Shown here: piece after piece, positions 1-8,761 of the stretch | Position numbering within the stretch: the stretch's first letter is position 1 | Layout: each line of letters begins with the position of its first letter | Source: a virus | UHGV virus genome: UHGV-1746862 | Direction: 5' to 3' (one strand) | Length of the DNA: 13,572 nucleotides | The notes under the pieces: model-generated | Database searches by the model: none | Seen by the model: the letters and a program-made list of their open reading frames with translations, nothing else | Told to the model about the DNA's origin: nothing | Position numbers and translations under genes: made by a program

Positions 1-144
1 CTCTTACTCCCCCTCTCCCCAAAAGTCAAGAGAAAAATTTGTAGCGGATTGAAAAATAATTCTTGATTTGCGTTCTGTTTTGTGGTAGTCGCGCGCACCC
101 GTTTCATTACAATTTTTTTCAAAAAAATATTTTTAAAATTCCTA

Positions 145-223
145 TTGACTCTTTGAGTATGGTTATCTAGTATTTGCATCAGACGGGCAATCAAGCCCAC
201 TTCCTAAACTGGAGAATCTAAAA
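145..223 (+). promoter_or_regulatory. Putative sigma70-like promoter plus conserved translation-initiation region upstream of a micro-ORF
   Basis: TTGACT (145-150), 17-bp spacer, TAGTAT (168-173); A/T tract upstream (113-140); weak stem GGGC/GCCC 185-198; then CCTAAACTGGAGAATCTAAAAATG, the same initiation region as the downstream cassettes. Confidence 0.4.
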
Positions 224-298
224 ATGCTGTACAGTCGCGAATTGATGGTTACAACTAACGTTAACACAAAAGCAAAACGTTTTTACATGCAAATCTGA
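224..298 (+). CDS. Micro-ORF, 24 aa (MLYSRELMVTTNVNTKAKRFYMQI); hypothetical small peptide or decayed gene remnant
   Basis: ATG at 224 placed exactly as in the other cassette-driven genes (GGAG 9 nt upstream); ends TGA 296-298; below the ORF-track length cutoff. Confidence 0.25.
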   Translation: MLYSRELMVTTNVNTKAKRFYMQI

Positions 299-430
299 GG
301 CGTATGGTCCAGAATATCAGAAGCTGACTATTGCAACTATGTAGAAACAGCTATAAACTCTAATTGCTACCTTACAAGAAATACAAGAAAGTACATAAGA
401 CAGACAGCAGTTTATTACTACAATATCTAA

Positions 431-519
431 TAAAGTACTTTACAAGGGGCTTATAGTTCGATAAAGTAAGCCCCAGATAAAGAACTTTACCACTAAATCC
501 TAAATTGGAGAACTTAAAA
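431..519 (+). promoter_or_regulatory. Type A cassette: promoter-like TTTACA-N17-TAAAGT overlapping a GC-clamped stem-loop, plus conserved RBS
   Basis: TTTACA 439-444; TAAAGT 462-467; stem GGGGCTTA 446-453 / TAAGCCCC 467-474; GGAG 507-510; nearly identical to the copy at 2488-2576. Confidence 0.55.
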
Positions 520-813
520 ATGGCTATTATCAAAAACGTTGTAATTACTGCAAAGACTCGTGATGACGCTCGCGTTATGGCTAAAAAGTTATGCGGGAAA
601 GTGGTTGACAATGGAAAACAATCTGCTGTAAGGTGGGGCGTGAAGGTTGATAAACAGTTGAAGTTAAAAAATTCACCGATAAACCTTTTTACATGTGTAA
701 ACACTATCGGGAAGACAAATGTATACACGAAAAAGGCATACATTAGACGCGTAGCATTAACATCCCCCATTCGTACAATGAGAAGTTATGCAAAGCTGAA
801 AATTAACAAATAA
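520..813 (+). CDS. Hypothetical small basic protein (97 aa)
   Basis: ATG at 520 with GGAG at cassette spacing. The ORF track's 505 start is an in-frame TTG inside the RBS and is rejected. Stop TAA 811-813 immediately followed by the next cassette. Confidence 0.7.
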   Translation: MAIIKNVVITAKTRDDARVMAKKLCGKVVDNGKQSAVRWGVKVDKQLKLKNSPINLFTCVNTIGKTNVYTKKAYIRRVALTSPIRTMRSYAKLKINK

Positions 814-900
814 AGTACTTTACAGGGGGCTTAAAAGTTGATATCTTAAGCCCCAGATAAAGAGCTTTACCACTCAATCCTTAAACTAGGAGATTCAAAA
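811..900 (+). promoter_or_regulatory. Type A cassette (variant stem)
   Basis: TTTACA 819-824; TATCTT 842-847; stem GGGGCTTAA 826-834 / TTAAGCCCC 846-854; CTAGGAGATTCAAAA then ATG at 901. Confidence 0.55.
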
Positions 901-1413
901 ATGAAAACTGTAGACGCTACCTTTGAAGTTGTAAAAGAAAAATTCACCATTATTTACGAAGCTGTCAATTGTTATGAAGCAAGCCATAATCTTGATAATT
1001 GGAAGTTTACAGATGACCATCAAGGCGGCGTGACTGTTAAAAATCCTAACTGTCAGCGTAATGAATTTAAATATGCAATCCCTTTACATTACAGCCTTAA
1101 ACAGCTTTCAAGTGACTATGCAAAACAAGGCCGTGAGAATCCATCGAAAGAGGCTTACACGAGCTTACAGAAAGAACTAGAAAGAGATTTAGAGGCTTCA
1201 GAGTATAACCTTGCCGCGAAAGTTGTGGATGCAAACGGTAGCACGGTTTTAGAAAGTTTTTATCTTGGTTATGCTTTCGATTGGTGCTATCGTGACGGCG
1301 ATGATTTAGAGGATAGACTAAAAGAAGAGGTGAACAACGCAGACGCAGAATCTGAAGTATTAGAACGTTTGGAATCGTTGAAAGACTCAGTGATGAATAT
1401 CTTTAAGAACTAA
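901..1413 (+). CDS. Hypothetical acidic protein (170 aa)
   Basis: ORF with cassette RBS; stop TAA 1411-1413 abuts the next cassette; no recognisable motif. Confidence 0.75.
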   Translation: MKTVDATFEVVKEKFTIIYEAVNCYEASHNLDNWKFTDDHQGGVTVKNPNCQRNEFKYAIPLHYSLKQLSSDYAKQGRENPSKEAYTSLQKELERDLEASEYNLAAKVVDANGSTVLESFYLGYAFDWCYRDGDDLEDRLKEEVNNADAESEVLERLESLKDSVMNIFKN

Positions 1414-1505
1414 ATAGATTTCTTTACACGGGGTTATCAGACTGATAAGATAGCCCCAGATAAAGAGCTTTATTCAAATCAACCCTTAAACTAGGAGATT
1501 CTAAA
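1411..1505 (+). promoter_or_regulatory. Type A cassette (divergent stem with compensatory changes)
   Basis: TTTACA 1423-1428; TAAGAT 1446-1451; stem-loop GGGGTTATCAGACTGATAAGATAGCCCC 1430-1456; CTAGGAGATTCTAAA then ATG at 1506. Confidence 0.5.
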
Positions 1506-1802
1506 ATGAAATTATCAAATAAAGTCCGTGAAAATTTAAGCAAGTTACTTAATAAAATTGATTTCATTGAAACATCAAGGAATAGTCATGATGTTATGGA
1601 ATGGTTACACGGAAAAATCAAAGGCCGTCGTGTAGTGATTTGCTTATGGAACAGTTGCAGGGAGTATAAAAAACCTGTATTGCAAGTCAATATTTATGAT
1701 GATACTTTTAAAAGTCCTGTAAAGTCTAAAAGCGATTTATTAGAATCCTATGAGATAACTGTAAATGGCAAAGTATCACGTAAAGAGGAAACACCATGTT
1801 AA
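1506..1802 (+). CDS. Hypothetical protein (98 aa)
   Basis: ORF with cassette RBS; its stop TAA 1800-1802 overlaps the next start (ATGTTAA). Confidence 0.7.
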   Translation: MKLSNKVRENLSKLLNKIDFIETSRNSHDVMEWLHGKIKGRRVVICLWNSCREYKKPVLQVNIYDDTFKSPVKSKSDLLESYEITVNGKVSRKEETPC

Positions 1803-2128
1803 TGACTGGTATCACTGCAATCATTGTCATTTTCGCGCTATATAAGGCATATAAAGCCTATAATCTGGCAAGTAAGGCAATCACACAACAGGTTAATAAT
1901 AACCTTGTAATGAGCTTTCTAGAGCGTTTAAGTGATGAACAATTAAAACGGCTAGAAATGAGCTTTAGATTCAGGGCGAGAACTTATCAAATCAGTGACA
2001 TTTTCAAAGATAATTTTCAATTAGTCGATGATTATAATTCTCTGATAAATGCTTTAAATATTAGTGACTTAAAAGATTATCACGCTGTAATTGTTCAAGA
2101 ATTGAGCAAACGAAAACAAAACTGTTGA
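1796..2128 (+). CDS. Hypothetical small membrane-anchored protein (110 aa), one N-terminal hydrophobic helix
   Basis: Translationally coupled to the upstream gene; GAGGA 7 nt upstream of ATG 1796; residues 3-17 (MTGITAIIVIFALYK) hydrophobic. Confidence 0.65.
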   Translation: MLMTGITAIIVIFALYKAYKAYNLASKAITQQVNNNLVMSFLERLSDEQLKRLEMSFRFRARTYQISDIFKDNFQLVDDYNSLINALNISDLKDYHAVIVQELSKRKQNC

Positions 2129-2217
2129 CACTGATTTTTAGATAGATTAAATTACACATCAACGGGGAGGCAATAACCTCCCTACTAAATAAAGTCCTTA
2201 AACTAGGAGATTCAAAA
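2125..2217 (+). promoter_or_regulatory. Type B cassette: TTGACA-N17-TAAATT promoter, 5'-proximal GGGGAGG/CCTCCC stem-loop, conserved RBS
   Basis: TTGACA 2125-2130 overlaps the upstream stop TGA 2126-2128; TAAATT 2148-2153; stem 2164-2182; CTAGGAGATTCAAAA then ATG at 2218. Confidence 0.6.
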
Positions 2218-2490
2218 ATGTATACTACTAACAACGGTCGTACTTTAAATGTCACTCTACGTCACTATGTTGATGGTGTAATGTGCTTTGATGATTTACA
2301 AGCTGAGCAACACATCTTAGATTGGCAAGTAGCAGGACTCCAAAAAACTGCTACCGGATACGGGAAAAAGATTCCAACTAGCTGGAAAGTACACTATGAA
2401 GGCCGTTTGCGCAGAATTTATCAAGATGTGCAAAGCAATAGCGCATCGAGTTACATTATAGTAAAAGGCAAAAAACTGCATTTAATGTAA
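2218..2490 (+). CDS. Hypothetical protein (90 aa)
   Basis: ORF with cassette RBS; stop TAA 2488-2490 abuts a type A cassette. Confidence 0.7.
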   Translation: MYTTNNGRTLNVTLRHYVDGVMCFDDLQAEQHILDWQVAGLQKTATGYGKKIPTSWKVHYEGRLRRIYQDVQSNSASSYIIVKGKKLHLM

Positions 2491-2576
2491 AGTACTTTAC
2501 AAGGGGCTTATAGTTCGATAAAGTAAGCCCCAGATAAAGAGCTTTACCACTAAATCCTAAATTGGAGAACTTAAAA
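2488..2576 (+). promoter_or_regulatory. Type A cassette, near-identical copy of 431-519
   Basis: TTTACA 2496-2501; stem-loop 2503-2531; same RBS; about 1 mismatch per 100 nt against 431-519, identity extending into the first codons (ATGGCTATTA). Confidence 0.55.
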
Positions 2577-2981
2577 ATGGCTATTAATAACCGTGAATTA
2601 TCAATTTTAAAAGCACGTTTGACCGTTAACCGGATTAATGTTATCACGTCATCAGCACCAGATGAAACACTGCAAAACATTATTGGGAAGATTCAAAGTG
2701 TTATCTTAGACGTTGAAAGCGTAAAAAATTCATTGGCTGACGTTGCAGCAGGTATCACACTAGACGGTGCGCAATATGAAATGTCCGACATGTTAGGCAA
2801 ATCTAAGGTAATGAATAAAGAGTTAGATTTGAAAATGTTCCGATTTGCTGTTAAAGTGTGGCTATCTGTCGAGTATGATGCTAACTTTGCAATCGCTGAC
2901 TTTTTCGCCACTTGGTTGCAGCGTAATTTGACTAATCATGACTTCCGCGATATCTGGGATGCAATTTATGCAGAACTCTAA
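2577..2981 (+). CDS. Hypothetical protein (134 aa)
   Basis: ATG at 2577 with cassette RBS; the track's 2562 start is an in-frame TTG inside the RBS and is rejected. Confidence 0.7.
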   Translation: MAINNRELSILKARLTVNRINVITSSAPDETLQNIIGKIQSVILDVESVKNSLADVAAGITLDGAQYEMSDMLGKSKVMNKELDLKMFRFAVKVWLSVEYDANFAIADFFATWLQRNLTNHDFRDIWDAIYAEL

Positions 2982-2990
2982 AAAATTTTG

Positions 2991-3085
2991 TTGACACTGG
3001 TTTTTAGATAGATTAAATTACACATCAACGGGGAGGGAATGACCTTCCCCACTAAGTAAAGTCCTTAAACTAGGAGATTCAAAAA
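2991..3085 (+). promoter_or_regulatory. Type B cassette
   Basis: TTGACA 2991-2996; TAAATT 3014-3019; stem GGGGAGGG 3030-3037 / CCTTCCCC 3043-3050; CTAGGAGATTCAAAAA then ATG at 3086. Confidence 0.6.
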
Positions 3086-3289
3086 ATGGCTATTATTAAT
3101 GATTTAACCATTGAAACTACACACATCAAAGATATCAAAGTTGGCGATATAGTCCTTTCCCACGGCGTAGAAAAAACTGTCACTGCAAAGGATATCAAAG
3201 AGGATTCTTTCATGGGTAGGACTCTCTTCGGTGATTCTTATTGCTTAGGCTATCTTGCAGTTTTAAAAGTTGTCAAAAATAACAAATAA
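3086..3289 (+). CDS. Hypothetical protein (67 aa)
   Basis: ORF with cassette RBS; starts MAII like the gene at 520. Confidence 0.65.
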   Translation: MAIINDLTIETTHIKDIKVGDIVLSHGVEKTVTAKDIKEDSFMGRTLFGDSYCLGYLAVLKVVKNNK

Positions 3290-3375
3290 AGTACTTTACA
3301 AGGGGCTTAAAAGTTGATAACTTAAGCCCCAGATAAAGAGCTTTACCACTAAATCCTAAACTGGAGATTCTAAAA
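3287..3375 (+). promoter_or_regulatory. Type A cassette (stem variant as in 811-900)
   Basis: TTTACA 3295-3300; stem-loop 3302-3330; CTGGAGATTCTAAAA then ATG at 3376. Confidence 0.55.
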
Positions 3376-3624
3376 ATGATGAACTACTTTAACATTCCCG
3401 ATACCTGTAGATTATTGACACAAGAAGAAAATTTGGGTAAACCTTTCATTTACCACATGCCAGATAACACGGCAAAAACTTATAGTTACAATGTTAACCG
3501 TTTCACCGCATACGCTGCAAAGAACGGCTATAGGTTGGTTACTCAAAAAGTAATGCTGGTTACAACTGCTGGCGAGATTCCTACAGTTGCAGTCAAACTA
3601 GTTTTCTCAAAGAAAGTTAAATAA
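3376..3624 (+). CDS. Hypothetical protein (82 aa)
   Basis: ORF with cassette RBS; stop TAA 3622-3624 abuts the next cassette. Confidence 0.65.
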   Translation: MMNYFNIPDTCRLLTQEENLGKPFIYHMPDNTAKTYSYNVNRFTAYAAKNGYRLVTQKVMLVTTAGEIPTVAVKLVFSKKVK

Positions 3625-3709
3625 AGCACTTTACAAGGGGCTTATAGTTCGATAAAGTAAGCCCCAGATAAAGAGCTTTACCACTAAATCCTAAACTGGA
3701 GATTCAAAA
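3622..3709 (+). promoter_or_regulatory. Type A cassette
   Basis: TTTACA 3630-3635; stem-loop 3637-3665; CTGGAGATTCAAAA then ATG at 3710. Confidence 0.55.
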
Positions 3710-4252
3710 ATGAAATGCTATCACGGAACTACTCAAGAAAATTTCCTCAACCTGATTAATAACGGTGATAAACCATCAGGCGCATGGGATTGTTCGGATA
3801 TGGACGGCAATTTTTACGTGTATCCAGAAAATAAAATCTATGGCGACGATGATGAAGAGATAACATCGGAAGGTATTCAGCAAGCTCTAGGCAATGCCAC
3901 TATCACCGCAGCTTTTCAGATGAAGACTCAAAATATTGTTATCTTAGAACTCGATATTCCAGAGGATGAGCTAAACGATGATTATTCTTGTGATAATATG
4001 TCGAGTGTAGCAAGTTTTACAGAGTACTTTGATGTAAATTGGATTAAAAAGGTCTATACAACAGAGTTTAATGCTATGTATTCACCTTTTTGTCTTCCTT
4101 CATTGGATAACCCAAATTTAAACTATCTTGATGAGTCTCTGGAGCTTCTTGCTAAAAGTGTTCAACAGTCGGACAGTATTCAGGTTTTTTGTGACATCAT
4201 GGATACACTGACAGGAAACATTGCAGAAGAGGATTTAAAGAGCTTTTTCTAA
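3710..4252 (+). CDS. Hypothetical strongly acidic protein (180 aa)
   Basis: ORF with cassette RBS; many Asp/Glu runs (DDDEE, PEDELNDDY); followed by a terminator-like hairpin. Confidence 0.75.
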   Translation: MKCYHGTTQENFLNLINNGDKPSGAWDCSDMDGNFYVYPENKIYGDDDEEITSEGIQQALGNATITAAFQMKTQNIVILELDIPEDELNDDYSCDNMSSVASFTEYFDVNWIKKVYTTEFNAMYSPFCLPSLDNPNLNYLDESLELLAKSVQQSDSIQVFCDIMDTLTGNIAEEDLKSFF

Positions 4253-4284
4253 AAACCTATGCAATCACCTTATAAACACTAATC

Positions 4285-4304
4285 AGCCCCTTGTAGGGGC
4301 TTTT
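4285..4304 (+). terminator. Putative intrinsic terminator (short T-tail)
   Basis: AGCCCC 4285-4290, loop TTGTA, GGGGCT 4296-4301, then TTTT. Confidence 0.45.
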
Positions 4305-4318
4305 AGAGGGCTTAAATC

Positions 4319-4552
4319 ATGCTTACAACCATTTACCTCATCCTTTCCATCTGTAATGGTCATTCATGTGATTTTAAAGGGCTTGAAGAGTTTACAGGAA
4401 GTAAAGAAAATGCTATTCAAGTTTGCCAGATAGCAAGACAAGACTATCCCGCTAGTGATGATATACAATGTTACTTTAAGACAGAAGATGAAGACGGTAT
4501 CTATTTTGACAGCGTAGATGGTCAGTATGAAATTATCATTGAAAAAGACTAG
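4319..4552 (+). CDS. Hypothetical small protein (77 aa) with hydrophobic, Cys-containing N-terminus
   Basis: ATG at 4319 with weak AGAGGG upstream; the only gene of the array without a cassette; N-terminus MLTTIYLILSICNGHSC. Confidence 0.5.
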   Translation: MLTTIYLILSICNGHSCDFKGLEEFTGSKENAIQVCQIARQDYPASDDIQCYFKTEDEDGIYFDSVDGQYEIIIEKD

Positions 4553-4643
4553 ACAAGCCTGATAAAAATCTGTAAATTGTCAATCAACGGGGAGGGAATG
4601 ACCTTCCCCACTAAGTACAATCCTTAAACTAGGAGATTCAAAA
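4550..4643 (+). promoter_or_regulatory. Type B cassette
   Basis: TAGACA 4550-4555 overlaps stop TAG 4550-4552; TAAATT 4573-4578; stem 4589-4609; CTAGGAGATTCAAAA then ATG at 4644. Confidence 0.55.
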
Positions 4644-4985
4644 ATGGCTTATGTAACCGTAATTACCGATAAAGAAAATTCATCTTGGTCAACTCAAGTA
4701 AGTGATAAGATGTCACCTATGCAGTGCCTAAAATACTTTGAACAGTGGAACAAAGGCGAGGACACAAGCCCCTTTCAAGTGATGCAGATTATCCATGTAG
4801 ATAACGAAGGGAATAAAACGGTTTTAAATAGTGAGTACTACGCAAGCCTTTTTGAAACGAGAAGTAAAACAATGAAGCTTTTACGTGAATCCGGTTATGC
4901 CCATATCGCCGCGTTAATCTGGGATGACCTGCTAAAAAACCAACGTATCAGCTATGTAAAACCTGAAAAAATATTCATCAGTTAA
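4644..4985 (+). CDS. Hypothetical protein (113 aa)
   Basis: ORF with cassette RBS. Confidence 0.7.
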   Translation: MAYVTVITDKENSSWSTQVSDKMSPMQCLKYFEQWNKGEDTSPFQVMQIIHVDNEGNKTVLNSEYYASLFETRSKTMKLLRESGYAHIAALIWDDLLKNQRISYVKPEKIFIS

Positions 4986-5018
4986 TCAATAACTTACAAA
5001 AAACTTTTAAAAAAAATG

Positions 5019-5047
5019 TTGACAATACCCCTTGACATTGGTAACTT
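5019..5047 (+). promoter_or_regulatory. Additional promoter-like element with tandem TTGACA hexamers and upstream A-tract
   Basis: A-run 5004-5016; TTGACA 5019-5024 and again 5032-5037; TAACTT 5042-5047 at 17-bp spacing from the first hexamer. Confidence 0.35.
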
Positions 5048-5115
5048 TGTTCGAGGGGGTTTATCTAAAAGGGATTCACTTAAAAGATTCTTTATAGATA
5101 AGCTCAAAAAATTAC

Positions 5116-5208
5116 TTGCAATCAGCTATCAAAACAAGTAAATTACTAATCAACGGGGAGGGAATGACCTTCCCCACTAAGTAAAATCCTTAAACTAGGA
5201 GAGTCAAA
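5116..5208 (+). promoter_or_regulatory. Type B cassette
   Basis: TTGCAA 5116-5121; TAAATT 5139-5144; stem GGGGAGGG 5155-5162 / CCTTCCCC 5168-5175; CTAGGAGAGTCAAA then ATG at 5209. Confidence 0.55.
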
Positions 5209-5739
5209 ATGAACAAGTTTAAAGCTATCAACTTCATTCGTTCAAATGCTGTAATGTCTAAGCCTGTAAAAGATACATATGAATTTCGTTGTAATGGGGT
5301 ACACTTTGCAACCATCACTAAGTCAGAAAACGGGGCTTATTATGTACATCGTCGTAATGTTGCAACCGTTGTAGTCTCTCACTTTATGCAAGCTGTAGCG
5401 GAATTATTACCGTTATTCTTAGAGATTTACTTAGATGAGTGTAAAAACGTTCACAACCACGTTAAAAACCTTTTAAACGGTTATAAAATGGCTTATGAAC
5501 GTTCTATCAAGTCACTAAACAAGTTTTACAATGCACCTGCAAATACTGTTTCAATGGCTTATGATGTAAACGGTGAGTTAGTTAGTCTCTTTAAAGTGGA
5601 AGAAATTAAACTGTATAATCTACGTCCTAGTGGTTACTCTAAGACTCTTGGTGAAGGTTTAACGTTCAATATCAAGAACTTAGAAAAAACTTTAAAAGAT
5701 ATTGAAAAAGATATTGACGAGACACTTAAAAGTCTGTAA
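5209..5739 (+). CDS. Hypothetical protein (176 aa)
   Basis: ORF with cassette RBS; its last codons and stop contain the promoter of the next cassette. Confidence 0.75.
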   Translation: MNKFKAINFIRSNAVMSKPVKDTYEFRCNGVHFATITKSENGAYYVHRRNVATVVVSHFMQAVAELLPLFLEIYLDECKNVHNHVKNLLNGYKMAYERSIKSLNKFYNAPANTVSMAYDVNGELVSLFKVEEIKLYNLRPSGYSKTLGEGLTFNIKNLEKTLKDIEKDIDETLKSL

Positions 5740-5806
5740 ATTGTCAATCAACGGGGAGGCGATAACCTCCCCACTAAATAAAACCCTTAAACTAGGAGAT
5801 TCAAAA
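5714..5806 (+). promoter_or_regulatory. Type B cassette, promoter embedded in the 3' end of the upstream gene
   Basis: TTGACG 5714-5719; TAAATT 5737-5742 overlaps stop TAA 5737-5739; stem GGGGAGG 5753-5759 / CCTCCCC 5766-5772; CTAGGAGATTCAAAA then ATG at 5807. Confidence 0.55.
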
Positions 5807-6055
5807 ATGGCAACTATCCGCGCTACTGTTAACGAGTTCGGTTTTTCCTCTCTGGATGTTAAATTTGACATTGCAGGCACTGATAACGCCTTTGAAATGG
5901 TGAAATGTCTTATCAGTCAGACCATCAAAGATTATAATCCTTCGGATGAGTTCTGGGAGGAAACAAAACAAGAAGTTCTCAAGGATGGTTATACTTATCA
6001 CTATTGGGGAGAAAAAATCGTCTCCCTGTACTACAACAAACAAGATTATAACTAA
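5807..6055 (+). CDS. Hypothetical protein (82 aa)
   Basis: ATG at 5807 with cassette RBS; the track's 5702 start is an in-frame extension running through the cassette and is rejected. Confidence 0.7.
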   Translation: MATIRATVNEFGFSSLDVKFDIAGTDNAFEMVKCLISQTIKDYNPSDEFWEETKQEVLKDGYTYHYWGEKIVSLYYNKQDYN

Positions 6056-6065
6056 TCGACGCAGC

Positions 6066-6117
6066 GGGGCTAAATAGCCCCAGATACCTGAACAGCCCCT
6101 TAAAATGGGGCTTTTTT
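6066..6117 (+). terminator. Two consecutive GC stem-loops, the second a canonical intrinsic terminator closing the rightward array
   Basis: GGGGCT-AAAT-AGCCCC 6066-6081; AGCCCC-TTAAAAT-GGGGCT 6094-6112 followed by TTTTT 6113-6117. Confidence 0.6.
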
Positions 6118-6560
6118 ACGTCTATGTAATAGCCTCTATTCAATCCTTTTCCTTTCCTTTCCAGAATCTATCCCACTGATTCAATAGAATCTTATCAGAC
6201 CTTAAAAGCAATAACTCTATAGTCTACTCTATAACCTCTTATCAAATCAACTTAAATAAAAGCCAATAACCCCAGAAAGGGGATGGCCCATTTAAACGCT
6301 CTATAAAGCTCTATAACAGCCTTATCAACCTAACTTAAGGGATTGCATTACCTCACCCTAAAAAGCCCTTTATAAAGCTTCCCAGAGACTTAAAAGAATC
6401 TTATAAGGGTGTAAGCTTTATCATCTCATTAGTATTCTTGTGAATATCTAAACAACCCCTTGATAGTCACTAAAAAGTATGTTATAGGGGCTTTAAAGTT
6501 ACTTTGAAGTAGCTTAAAAGTTACGTAAAAGAGGCTATAAAGTTACGTAAATGCTAGCCC

Positions 6561-6661
6561 CCTTAACATTCTCTTAACAATTTCTTAACAATCCCTACAT
6601 AGTTATGCTTTTAAGGCACTTGTTAGCAACTTGTTAGTCCCTTGTTAAATCTCTGTTAAGA
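6561..6661. repeat. Head-to-head sub-array: three CTTAACA sites, then four TGTTA(G/A) sites in the opposite orientation, each set at exact 11-bp spacing
   Basis: TAACA cores start at 6564, 6575, 6586; TGTTA cores start at 6621, 6632, 6643, 6654. Confidence 0.7.
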
Positions 6662-6863
6662 CCACGTAAAAGCCTTGTAAGAGTCTTTGACATAGCCTTA
6701 AAAGCTCCTGTAAAGCCCTATAAAGAGCTATCTGTACAGTTGGGGGATAGATACTAGGAAGAGACTTAAAAGAGCTTACAAAGAGCTATAGAGAGCTTTT
6801 AAGAGGGCTATTTAGAGAATCACTAAGAGAGAAAGGGAACGATAAGACCAGAGATAGTGACCA

Positions 6864-7140
6864 TGTTAATAGCTTGTTAAAAAGATTAAACACTTGTTAG
6901 AAACTTGTTAATTATCTTAACAAAATAACTCTTTAAAATTAACTTGTTAGCTCTTGTTAATCATCTGTTAAGACTCTGTAAAGACTATTCAGCACTTGTT
7001 AGAAAACTGTTACAGCCTTGTTAGTTCTGTTAAGAAACTGTTAAGACCTTTGAAGAGTTGTTAAGAAGGTGTTAGAACTGTTAAGAGATTGTTAAGGATA
7101 TTTTAAAATTTTGCAAAGTACTTGTAAGGGAGCTGTTAAG
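6864..7140 (+). repeat. Tandem array of about 17 TGTTA(A)G-family sites, mostly phased at 9-11 bp
   Basis: TGTTA cores start at 6864, 6875, 6895, 6906, 6945, 6955, 6966, 6997, 7008, 7019, 7028, 7039, 7059, 7070, 7079, 7090, 7134; one inverted copy (CTTAACA) at 6916-6922. Confidence 0.7.
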
Positions 7141-7429
7141 GGCTACCAAGCAGATATACATCCTAATCAGATATTTTTGAGTTCCTTCAAAGACCCTAAA
7201 AAATGACTTGACAGTCCTATTTTATAAAAATTTTAAGATTCTGAATAATTACCTATACAGCCTTTTAAAAATACAGGTAATAACAGGCTTATAAGATACC
7301 TTGTTAGTACCGTGTTAGACCTTGTGAGATAAGGCCTGTAAAGATATTCCTGTTAAGTTTATTAAAACAGTCTATATAGAGGCTTAGTAATACCTAGTGA
7401 ACACCTATAGAGAGTATCATAGCTGACAT

Positions 7430-7635
7430 AGAGATTAAGAGGTGTATAGGAGCTTCTAAGAAGGTGTAGAGGGATGGTTAAGGTGATTGTATAGGTTGTT
7501 AAGAAGGCTTGTTAGAGGGCTTGTTAGAAGGGTTATACAGAGGGGCTATTAAGACCACTAGATAGTTACTAAGATACTATATAGTACTATATAACTATAT
7601 AGAGAGTAAGATTAAGAAGGTTGTTAAGAAGGATA
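7430..7635 (+). repeat. Cluster of longer motif variants ((C)TTGTTA(A)GAAGG, AAGGTGTAGAGG)
   Basis: TTGTTAAGAAGG at 7496-7507 and 7621-7632; CTTGTTAGAGGG at 7508-7519; CTTGTTAGAAGGG at 7520-7532; related GGTGTATAGG / AAGGTGTAGAGGG at 7440-7473. Confidence 0.55.
7575..7602. repeat. TATA-rich palindromic cluster
   Basis: Perfect 12-bp palindrome TACTATATAGTA at 7575-7586; three CTATATA(G) copies at 7577, 7587 and 7595. Confidence 0.6.
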
Positions 7636-7690
7636 GATATTTTGTTCACATATGATGGTGACCCAGAGGTTGGGACAACCGATAAAATTT

Positions 7691-7723
7691 TATAAAAGTA
7701 AAAAGCCCCCAATTAAGGAGGCT
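7691..7723 (-). terminator. Putative intrinsic terminator closing the leftward gene cluster
   Basis: On the minus strand, AGCCUCC-UUAAUU-GGGGGCU (7 bp stem with one G-U pair) followed by UUUUACUUUUAUA, just past stop TAA 7735-7737. Confidence 0.55.
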
Positions 7724-7734
7724 CTTAAGATATT

Positions 7735-8358
7735 TTAAATCAGTGTTTCCAGAACTGTTTTTAATGATGACTTGGTTGTCTGATAAAAATGAGTAAATCC
7801 ATTATTGTTATCGAATATCTGCATCATAACAGCATCTCCCTTGATTGGGTACACTCGGATATCATAGTGAAAACCATTAAAGACACAAGAGCCATTACAG
7901 AATGCACTAAAGTCATCCACTGAGATATACTCTTCATGCCCTGTGATTTTTATACAAACACCTTTACTCGGTCTCTTAGGGTTGATATCTTCCATCACAG
8001 ACATACTCTGCCCACCAAGAGATACCATAGTGACCACTTTACGGTTCTTCTGTTTAAAGTACATCTTAACTTTCTGTAAAGTGTCTTCATAGAACGGGTA
8101 AGACCTTTCTACAAAGATTCCTTCAAGTGGCTCTTTACCATTTTCAACTTCTCTGTTATGCCGTACTGCAAAGATAATTTGTTCGAACCAGTCAAGATTT
8201 TCTTCGGAGAGTGCTTCTCGAACATCACTCCAGTCAAGTACTAGGTAGTTACCTTCAACTTCTTTTAAGTTATCTTTTTCCATAGATATCACACCATTAT
8301 CGTAAAACTTGATATTCTGGTACTGCGAATTTATTACTATTGTTCTTGATGAGGTCAT
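7735..8358 (-). CDS. Hypothetical protein (207 aa; possibly starts at the internal ATG 8283, giving 182 aa)
   Basis: Long ORF; the first 62 nt overlap the upstream gene in another frame; no clear SD before ATG 8358. Confidence 0.65.
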   Translation of the reverse strand: MTSSRTIVINSQYQNIKFYDNGVISMEKDNLKEVEGNYLVLDWSDVREALSEENLDWFEQIIFAVRHNREVENGKEPLEGIFVERSYPFYEDTLQKVKMYFKQKNRKVVTMVSLGGQSMSVMEDINPKRPSKGVCIKITGHEEYISVDDFSAFCNGSCVFNGFHYDIRVYPIKGDAVMMQIFDNNNGFTHFYQTTKSSLKTVLETLI

Positions 8359-8761
8359 CCTCTGAAACTAAAAATGTAATACCACATAAGTGTCTGTAAC
8401 GACTATCATACTCGAATATCTTAAACAGATATTTACCATCATGATAAACCTGTTGCACTTCACCTTCTGCAACAATCTCGCCTGTAATAAAATTTTTTAG
8501 TTTATACACATTACCAACCTTAGGTACTGTTTTCATCTCAGGCTCTTTTAGTGCTACACCTATTTTTACATCACCGAGTAAATGAGAACTCTCAAAAGCT
8601 ACGTGTTTCATATAGGCTTCTGAGCATTCCCAAATAAAACAATGTACAAGAACCTTAGCAGCATGTCTTGAGCAGTTCAACTTATCACAAATTTCTGTGT
8701 ACATCTCATCTTTAGTAGAATTGTCAAGCATTGCTCTTTGCACTACTTCTTTAATTTTCAT
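8297..8761 (-). CDS. Hypothetical protein (154 aa)
   Basis: ORF in the leftward cluster, overlapping the upstream gene by 11 nt. Confidence 0.7.
   Translation of the reverse strand: MKIKEVVQRAMLDNSTKDEMYTEICDKLNCSRHAAKVLVHCFIWECSEAYMKHVAFESSHLLGDVKIGVALKEPEMKTVPKVGNVYKLKNFITGEIVAEGEVQQVYHDGKYLFKIFEYDSRYRHLCGITFLVSEDDLIKNNSNKFAVPEYQVLR

Follow-up and report, generated by a model that had tools for sequence, protein, structure and literature searches.

Background

In T4-type phages, promoter-early stem-loop (PeSL) cassettes have been described as intergenic elements (Arbiol et al. 2010, PMC2839356; Comeau et al. 2014, PMC4122927), whose early-promoter consensus in T4/PST is TTTACW-N17-TAYWAT (PMC4122927). 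PeSL-mediated modular shuffling has so far been documented only in the T4-type phages. The genome paper of phage Felix O1 lists, without interpretation, a 57-bp intergenic direct repeat, CTTTACATGGGGCTTA...CTTTACCACT, between genes 15/16 and 19/20, and a 39-bp repeat, TTGACACTGG...CATCAAC, between genes 18/19 and 20/21 (PMC3185647); apart from this bare list, our literature search found no account of these elements, or of a role for them in gene turnover, in Felix O1-like phages. Here we analyze a stretch of 13,572 nucleotides from the virus genome UHGV-1746862 (henceforth the window), which derives from a Felixounavirus, i.e. a Felix O1-like myovirus of ~88 kb (best matches: Escherichia phages ECML-1 (97%), LMP33 and LMP25). 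It contains two families of intergenic cassettes, which we term type A and type B, and which are of the same sequence types as the 57-bp and the 39-bp repeat of Felix O1, respectively. We consider it probable that type A is a stop-to-ATG expression cassette of the Felix O1-like phages, the copies of which recombine with and convert one another, turning over the genes that lie between them.

Results and discussion

Architecture of the cassette array

Positions 1-6100 of the window code for thirteen small proteins on the plus strand (genes w1 to w13), and eleven intergenic spaces of this region are filled by the two repeat families: six copies of type A (starting at 431, 811, 1411, 2488, 3287 and 3622) are interleaved along the array with five copies of type B (starting at 2125, 2979, 4550, 5116 and 5714). 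In the complete genome of LMP33 all 12 cassettes (six A and six B) lie on one strand in a single 6-kb stretch at 56.0-62.2 kb, and the cassette family is confined to the Ounavirinae, where it was recovered at 1276 places in 288 records.

Type A cassettes are ~88 nt long and run from the stop codon of the upstream gene to the ATG of the downstream one. They contain the putative promoter TTTACA-N17-TAnnnT, of which the spacer and the -10 element are enclosed by a 59-nt, three-tier hairpin of ~20 bp (tiers of 6, 5 and 8-9 bp, 1x1 and 3x3 internal loops and an 11-nt loop) with a folding energy of -24 to -26 kcal/mol (z of -4 to -5). GGAG, the Shine-Dalgarno sequence, is found 6-9 nt before the ATG in all eleven cassettes of both types, the distance measured for type A being 9-10 nt. 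The first copy (431-519, plus strand, as are all cassettes below) separates the disrupted gene x2 from w1 and has its -35 TTTACA at 439-444, its -10 TAAAGT at 462-467, the hairpin at 431-489 and GGAG at 507-510, with a predicted transcript start near A475. The fourth copy (2488-2576), between w5 and w6, has the same elements at 2496-2501, 2519-2524, 2488-2546 and 2564-2567, respectively. The second copy (811-900; w1 to w2) belongs to loop class 2 and has a -10 TATCTT after TG, while the third (1411-1505; w2 to w3) is divergent, with a GGGGTTATC/GATAGCCCC stem and a -10 TAAGAT, also after TG; the fifth (3287-3375) lies between w7 and w8 and the sixth (3622-3709) between w8 and w9. For the six type A copies transcripts are predicted to start near 475, 855, 1459, 2532, 3331 and 3666, and for type B some 7 nt past each TAAATT.

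Type B cassettes are built from TTGACA or a close variant, a 17-nt spacer and TAAATT, followed after 10 nt by a compact GGGGAGG/CCTCCCC hairpin of 7-8 bp and then by a ribosome-site module as in type A. In the copy at 2125-2217 (w4 to w5) the TTGACA (2125-2130) overlaps the stop codon of w4, with TAAATT at 2148-2153, the hairpin at 2164-2183 and AGGAG as the ribosome site. The copy at 2979-3085 (w6 to w7) has TTGACA at 2991-2996, TAAATT at 3014-3019 and the hairpin at 3030-3050; those at 4550-4643 (w10 to w11) and 5116-5208 (w11 to w12) carry TAGACA-N17-TAAATT and TTGCAA-N17-TAAATT, with hairpins at 4589-4609 and 5155-5175, respectively. In the last copy (5714-5806; w12 to w13) the -35 TTGACG is located inside w12 and TAAATT (5737-5742) overlaps its stop codon.

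Near-identical copies and shared first codons

The original prediction on this locus had drawn attention to near-identical repeats ~2 kb apart, with an identity extending into the first codons of genes whose products all begin MAI. Both observations hold: 431-529 and 2488-2586 agree at 98 of 99 bases without gaps, the sole difference being A484 versus G2541, which leaves exact-match runs of 53 and 45 nt. The identity stretches from the TAA stop triplet to the end of ATGGCTATTA; the 40-nt flanks on both sides show no relationship. This decamer constitutes the first codons of w1 (520-529, plus strand) and also opens w6 (2577-2586) and w7 (3086-3095). The opening is retained in nearly all relatives (13/13 for w1, 13/14 for w6 and 13/14 for w7), and the occurrence of identical seven bases after the ATG in 3 of 23 gene families has a P of ~0.014 under a conservative codon-shuffle null.

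The near-identity of this pair, which belongs to the above array, is real but special neither to the window nor to the pair. Across 30 genomes the w1 and w6 cassettes within one genome differ at 0-15 positions (median 6; two or fewer in 8 of the 30), compared to a median of 5-6 differences between orthologous w1 or w6 cassettes of different genomes. Given that the intragenomic differences are no larger than the orthologous ones, the near-identity in the window is a case of general homogenization rather than a recent private event.

Cassette-bounded gene gain, loss and movement

The genes separated by the cassettes are w1 (520-813), w2 (901-1413), w3 (1506-1802), w4 (1796-2128), w5 (2218-2490), w6 (2577-2981), w7 (3086-3289), w8 (3376-3624), w9 (3710-4252), w10 (4319-4552), w11 (4644-4985), w12 (5209-5739) and w13 (5807-6055). 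All are on the plus strand and of unassigned function: none of the thirteen reaches a curated Pfam cut-off, and their PHROG families are without known function. We treated them as units of gain and loss and compared the region across 36 genomes (14 GenBank phages, 21 IMG/VR contigs and the window) using uniform gene and cassette calling.

This comparison revealed a conserved backbone of gene order in which hardly any two architectures are identical. Presence varies between genomes for each of the genes x5, x1, w1, w2, w3, x8, w7, w8, w10, w12 and x4, and the unrelated genes y107 and y108 occupy two of the slots. Genes may also change position: a w8-like gene precedes w7 in L018 and L029 and takes the place of w7 in VpaE1_ev035. 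The architecture of the window itself, with a disrupted x2 and lacking x5, x1, x8 and x4, is matched by none of the 35 relatives. The junctions are 86-94 nt in length, and a cassette of type A or B is found at about four-fifths of the variable adjacencies. Thus, the presence or absence of cassette-bounded genes, which the original prediction proposed to look for in relatives, is seen as differences of whole genes, with a cassette at most of the variable junctions.

In the IMG/VR contig L027, two type B cassettes stand in tandem between w6 and w7, i.e. a cassette duplication without a gene. The open reading frame (ORF) family x16, an artefactual reading frame through a type B cassette, marks this tandem B-B duplication and was dropped, as were the families y102 and y105, whose ORFs of 28-32 codons were judged spurious. 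An apparent absence of w2 in SflM_004 was withdrawn, as a degenerate w2 is still there. VpaE1_ev035 was considered as a possible laboratory-evolved derivative of VpaE1; it differs at four slots and we found no paper on it, and it is counted here as one more variant.

Chimeric junctions and concerted evolution

At sites that lack a gene, a single cassette is left, which follows the left parental cassette at first and then, from within a stretch common to both, the right parental one. In the window, which lacks x4, 5737-5806 matches the cassette between w12 and x4 of ASO1A and KhF1 up to ATCAACGGGGAGG, and thereafter to their cassette between x4 and w13. Likewise, the cassettes between x2 and w1 of the window and ASO1A, both without x1, switch within TAAAGTACTTTACA; that between w7 and w9 of SeKF_63, without w8, does so inside a 40-nt identical stretch, and that between w10 and x4 of KhF3, without w11 and w12, inside ~60 nt. 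Such chimeric junctions are the signature expected of homologous exchange between the flanking cassettes, or of the reverse process of insertion.

A further pattern emerges from the variable parts of the cassettes. The loops fall into discrete classes and the ribosome-site spacers into three types; both are reassorted at orthologous positions, in that the loop class at a given position differs between genomes, and one class recurs at different positions. In ESCO56 all four A cassettes have a private class (J, with TATAGT for TAAAGT), L026 and L029 are similarly uniform, and PHB11 carries a divergent w3-type cassette at the position between w8 and w9. A strict filter for private variants common to paralogous copies recovered little, the table of loop classes being more informative. 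We also considered whether the cassettes are more conserved than the genes, which is not the case (0.81-0.95 versus 0.82-0.96).

A possible rearrangement of the 431/2488 pair in phage DE7

Using two synthetic junctions as queries, x1-cassette-w6 (representing a deletion, which in the window would remove 2,057 bp) and w5-cassette-w1 (representing a circle or duplication), we searched 50,697 phage records. Both junctions were recovered in one record only, that of Escherichia phage DE7 (L014; OL825705.1). Its gene order is x1 A w6 B w7 A w9 w10 B x17 w11 B w5 A w1 w4 B w12, in which (DE7 4164-8736) a w5-A-w1-w4 block stands between w11 and w12, and w6 comes immediately after x1. DE7 also lacks w2 and w3, and its junction between w1 and w4 is free of a cassette. 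It looks as if the block between the two A cassettes had been taken out and put back, circularly permuted, at a B cassette, an order that fits the route of excision and reintegration proposed for PeSL mini-circles (PMC2839356). The claim of the original prediction that the direct repeats are substrates for recombination stands for the family at large, in the form of gene gain, loss and replacement, chimeric junctions and reassortment of modules, whereas for the particular pair at 431 and 2488 the single record of DE7 is the one possible natural case.

Predicted promoter and hairpin signals

We examined conservation in 187 type A copies from the 36 genomes. TTTACA is present in 186 of these and TAnnnT at a 17-nt spacing in 184, while the inner three bases of the -10 and the rest of the loop are variable; the weaker hexamers TATCTT, TAAGAT and TAACTT are preceded by TG. 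The promoter-like positions were still invariant upon addition of copies from an Erwinia phage (Kolesnikvirus; four) and from Citrobacter phage Moogle (three). In type B, TAAATT and a -35-like hexamer at 17 nt are kept even though the five upstream contexts are unrelated and two of these overlap or sit within the preceding coding sequence. In Felix O1, the peak is at 5 min for ORFs 16 and 20, which lie 3' of the 57-bp type A repeat, and also for ORF 21, which lies 3' of a type B repeat; for ORF 19, likewise after type B, it is at 25 min (PMC3185647).

The type A hairpin is paired in 96.8% of cells of the alignment, with changes on both sides at three pairs; in all four Erwinia copies, for instance, GGTG/CACC replaces GGGG/CCCC. 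Covariation scores 0.106, as against 0.073 in shuffles (none of 500 reaches 0.106) and at most 0.034 with slid partners. An earlier count restricted to Felixounavirus copies had yielded a single double-changed pair, there being too little variation, and improved once the Erwinia and Citrobacter copies were included. Since many positions form G.U pairs, which would be A.C on the opposite strand, the hairpin most plausibly forms in plus-strand RNA. The 3' half, CAGATAAAG..CTTTA, is almost invariant, though it lies downstream of the predicted start.

A terminator scan detected none of the eleven cassette hairpins: none has a T-run, the bases that follow being AGATAAAG or ACTAA. Type B hairpins are nonetheless labeled as terminators in some GenBank records. 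The shape of the type A hairpin, with its three tiers and internal loops, fits the form of an RNase III site and has no match in Rfam, a search of which with the whole window yielded only a spurious sub-threshold hit (mir-980, E 0.13).

Beyond this set, the Erwinia phage Ea_Tu10 (L038, 6061-9915) displays type A-like cassettes of its own, with GGTG/CACC stems and AAGGA ribosome sites, and three of its genes are preceded by another, recurrent type of hairpin, GGGGTTAcggttatgagacTATAACCCC. With lineage-specific cassette families of this kind, arrays seem to be general in the subfamily.

Interpretation and alternatives

As conservation falls on the sigma-70-type promoter, the RNA hairpin and the Shine-Dalgarno sequence, the cassettes are most simply understood as expression and insulation signals, with recombination as a by-product. 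Expression control is probably their primary role, and the view of the original prediction that the array is built for gene shuffling finds no support in these conserved parts, which are kept at fixed spacing. Each cassette would provide its downstream gene with its own early host-polymerase promoter and ribosome site. Because the predicted start of the type A cassette is just past the 3' arm, its hairpin is expected to form only in RNA reading through from upstream, where it might act as an attenuator, a processing site or a 3' stabilizer of the upstream message; the type B hairpin, on the other hand, would cap the 5' end of the transcript of its own cassette. Given identical direct repeats of 40-100 nt within 6 kb, recombination and gene conversion are expected to be frequent on an evolutionary scale. 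General homologous recombination, of host or phage origin, could act on these tracts and keep the copies near-identical by concerted evolution, and the same exchange would delete, insert, replace or permute the intervening genes, leaving chimeric cassettes at the junctions. The comparative evidence supports such recombination; the promoter activity, the role of the hairpin, the acting recombination machinery and the circular intermediate are what we infer.

Several observations weigh against this interpretation and have to be set beside the alternatives. With respect to the promoter, the -35 hexamer, which sits in the middle stem, and the last T of the -10 are both in paired parts of the hairpin, so that their conservation is not independent evidence and only the loop TA counts as such. 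Generic promoter-like matches are common in this AT-rich region (33 found versus 25.7 expected), and no transcript map of a Felix O1-like phage turned up in our literature search. As the cassettes are so conserved, the covariation is modest, and as the copies are related, the statistics on the hairpin and on conservation are supportive rather than decisive. The pairing of the -35 and the frequency of promoter-like matches would fit an alternative in which the hairpins alone are functional and the hexamers incidental, with one long early transcript originating from the strong promoter at 145-173 (along with the TTGACA promoters), and the 20-bp irregular type A hairpins serving as RNase III-type processing sites or 3' stabilizers, as in the T7 early region. 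Such an account, which we regard as unlikely, would agree with the 59-nt hairpin having two internal loops and ~20 bp, with the retention of its pairing in 97% of cells, including G.U pairs and a few compensatory changes, and with the near-invariant 3' half downstream of the predicted start. However, pairing leaves unexplained why the loop T and A of TAnnnT are invariant (184/187 copies, and in other genera) right beside loop bases that vary freely. Nor does it account for the fixed 17-nt spacing from TTTACA and the TG ahead of the weak hexamers, and type B clearly joins a near-consensus promoter to the same ribosome-site module. Moreover, the roles of hairpin and promoter are compatible with each other.

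With respect to recombination, about one-fifth of the variable junctions are without a cassette (w1 to w4, w2 to w4, y108 to w3, x8 to w5 and x17 to w11), and selection for intact genes would also leave whole-gene insertions and deletions with intergenic boundaries. For the 431/2488 pair, DE7 is the sole rearranged record, 1 of ~288; moreover, exact identity extends over 81 nt between its two A copies and over 78 nt between its two B copies, a situation in which an assembly graph can swap the two blocks, so that the order in DE7 may be a repeat-induced misassembly (we found no paper on how DE7 was sequenced). It is nevertheless very improbable that the near-identity of the copies reflects purifying selection alone, with neither recombination nor conversion and with the gene differences stemming from unrelated illegitimate events. 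The obvious constraint on the key positions and the similar identities of cassettes and genes between genomes would fit this, but arbitrary 13-nt loop sequences are common to non-orthologous positions and swapped at orthologous ones, the private variant of ESCO56 occurs in all four of its A cassettes, and the junction cassettes change cleanly from the left to the right parent within the shared stretch. Least probable of all, in our assessment, is that the cassettes are not passive homology but dedicated recombination sites, be it integron-like folded hairpins or a mobile miniature element. The imperfect 59-nt hairpin, the ability of genes to change slots and the circular permutation in DE7, as expected from excision and reinsertion of a circle, are what would recommend it. 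Against this, no integrase or transposase is seen in the window or among the neighboring annotated genes, and no integrase in the annotated genome of a relative; no attC-type R'/R'' consensus (with no GTTRRRY core sites visible), terminal inverted repeats or target duplications are apparent; crossovers fall anywhere in the shared stretches and not at one point; and all copies are in the same orientation within one 6-kb region.

Returning to expression cassettes that recombine by general homology, a more far-reaching version, which we advance only tentatively and consider doubtful, is that the A and B families constitute an Ounavirinae-wide platform for gene exchange. As the order in DE7 suggests, blocks bounded by cassettes of the same type would be excised as circles and reinserted at any other cassette of matching type, be it in the same genome or in that of a co-infecting relative, and the promoter-in-hairpin design would render the moved genes self-sufficient and insulated. 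If true, this would be an integron-like system without an integrase, using a compact, overlapping terminator/promoter design that has not been described for PeSLs.

Other features of the window

At the head of the array (145-223, plus strand), ahead of x2, there is a candidate TTGACT-N17-TAGTAT promoter after an AT-rich stretch, followed by a GGGC/GCCC hairpin and GGAG. The stretch TAAAAAATTTTGTTGACA occupies 120-144; some type B copies have a comparable one, while in type A the -35 comes directly after the stop codon. The gene x2 (224-430, plus strand; 68 codons) is intact in relatives such as ASO1A and KhF1 and has an in-frame TGA at 296-298 in the window; its frame is unchanged thereafter, pointing to a recent nonsense mutation or a sequencing error. 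At the other end, the only canonical intrinsic terminator (stem and T-run) for the plus-strand array is found after w13, at 6094-6112 on the same strand.

Between w9 and w10 there is no cassette; the short AGCCCC/GGGGCT hairpin found instead at 4285-4301, with TTTTA after it, is conserved in relatives, where changes in its loop look compensatory, and might be a weak terminator or attenuator within the array. An additional conserved segment of ~130 nt (4983-5115) precedes the type B cassette that separates w11 from w12; most relatives have it too, with a junction of 201-227 nt; it contains TTGACAATACCCCTTGACATTGG, a possible ACCCC/GGGGGT hairpin and a 41-codon ORF at 5016-5141. Homologs of w3, w4 and w7 are labeled as 'tail sheath monomer', 'tail tube protein' or 'prohead assembly scaffold protein' in L006, L011 and other GenBank records; on early-region genes of 65-112 codons these structural labels look like errors of annotation transfer.

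Downstream of the array lies a gene-free stretch of 1.6 kb (6113-7700) between convergent plus- and minus-strand units, close to which several GenBank records of relatives start or end. Its part from 6560 to 7630 contains 27 of the 37 YTGTTAR motifs of the window, along with several other short tandem arrays; almost all of these motifs share one strand, and spacings of 10-11 bp between them are frequent. The arrays look like iteron-type protein-binding sites, possibly of a replication origin or a packaging region.

Significance and comparison with known systems

Felix O1-like phages are used in the typing of Salmonella and E. coli, in biocontrol and in therapy. The presence of the logic of PeSL-mediated shuffling in this unrelated and widely used group would suggest that it is a general route by which virulent phages turn over their host-takeover genes. 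In practical terms, exact repeats of 80-100 nt may cause genome instability in production stocks and assembly errors in short-read genomes, while the cassettes offer ready-made, self-contained slots for engineering. The promoter-inside-hairpin layout also provides a simple, testable case of overlapping signals for initiation and for termination or processing.

Among known systems, the morons of lambdoid phages are similar in being single accessory genes with their own expression signals that are present or absent between syntenic relatives. They differ in that morons are individually different and have canonical terminators, whereas the flanking signals described here fall into two repeat families, have no T-run and are themselves the homology on which exchange relies. 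The RNase III hairpins of T7 resemble type A as long irregular hairpins with internal loops between consecutive early cistrons, but they show no sequence relationship to it, are without promoters and are not known as substrates for recombination. In the halovirus HF2 (PMC8707807), repeated intergenic families likewise act as promoters in a virus genome; as far as the consulted part of that account goes, these are of the archaeal promoter type, with no hairpin or ribosome-site module and no documented cassette-bounded exchange.

The PeSLs come closest. Like them, the cassettes are short intergenic composites of a sigma-70-type early promoter, a GGGG...CCCC-type stem-loop, a Shine-Dalgarno sequence and a start codon, as judged here from sequence, and their -35 TTTACA fits the TTTACW of the T4/PST elements. 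In both cases the repeats are dense among small genes without assigned function in a hyperplastic region, and insertions, deletions and replacements between close relatives end within the elements; the excised-circle route proposed for PeSLs is also the one that the order in DE7 fits. On the other hand, PeSLs belong to T4-type myoviruses, whereas the present elements belong to Ounavirinae with genomes of ~88 kb. The stem-loop of PeSLs is upstream of the promoter, unlike type A, where it encloses the spacer and the -10, and type B, where it follows the start site. Here there are two interleaved families with a common 3' module, the long type A hairpin is three-tiered, and the cassettes fill the whole intergenic space at a fixed 86-94 nt. 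Further, promoter, terminator and circle formation of PeSLs are known from experiment, while the present cassettes are predicted from sequence alone. Since the defining stem-loop upstream of the promoter is lacking, we regard them as a PeSL-like variant rather than as members of the PeSL group, and conclude, with good support, that a known phenomenon extends to a phage group for which it is new. The nesting of the promoter in a hairpin is distinctive here, and DE7 may provide one natural case of block transposition.

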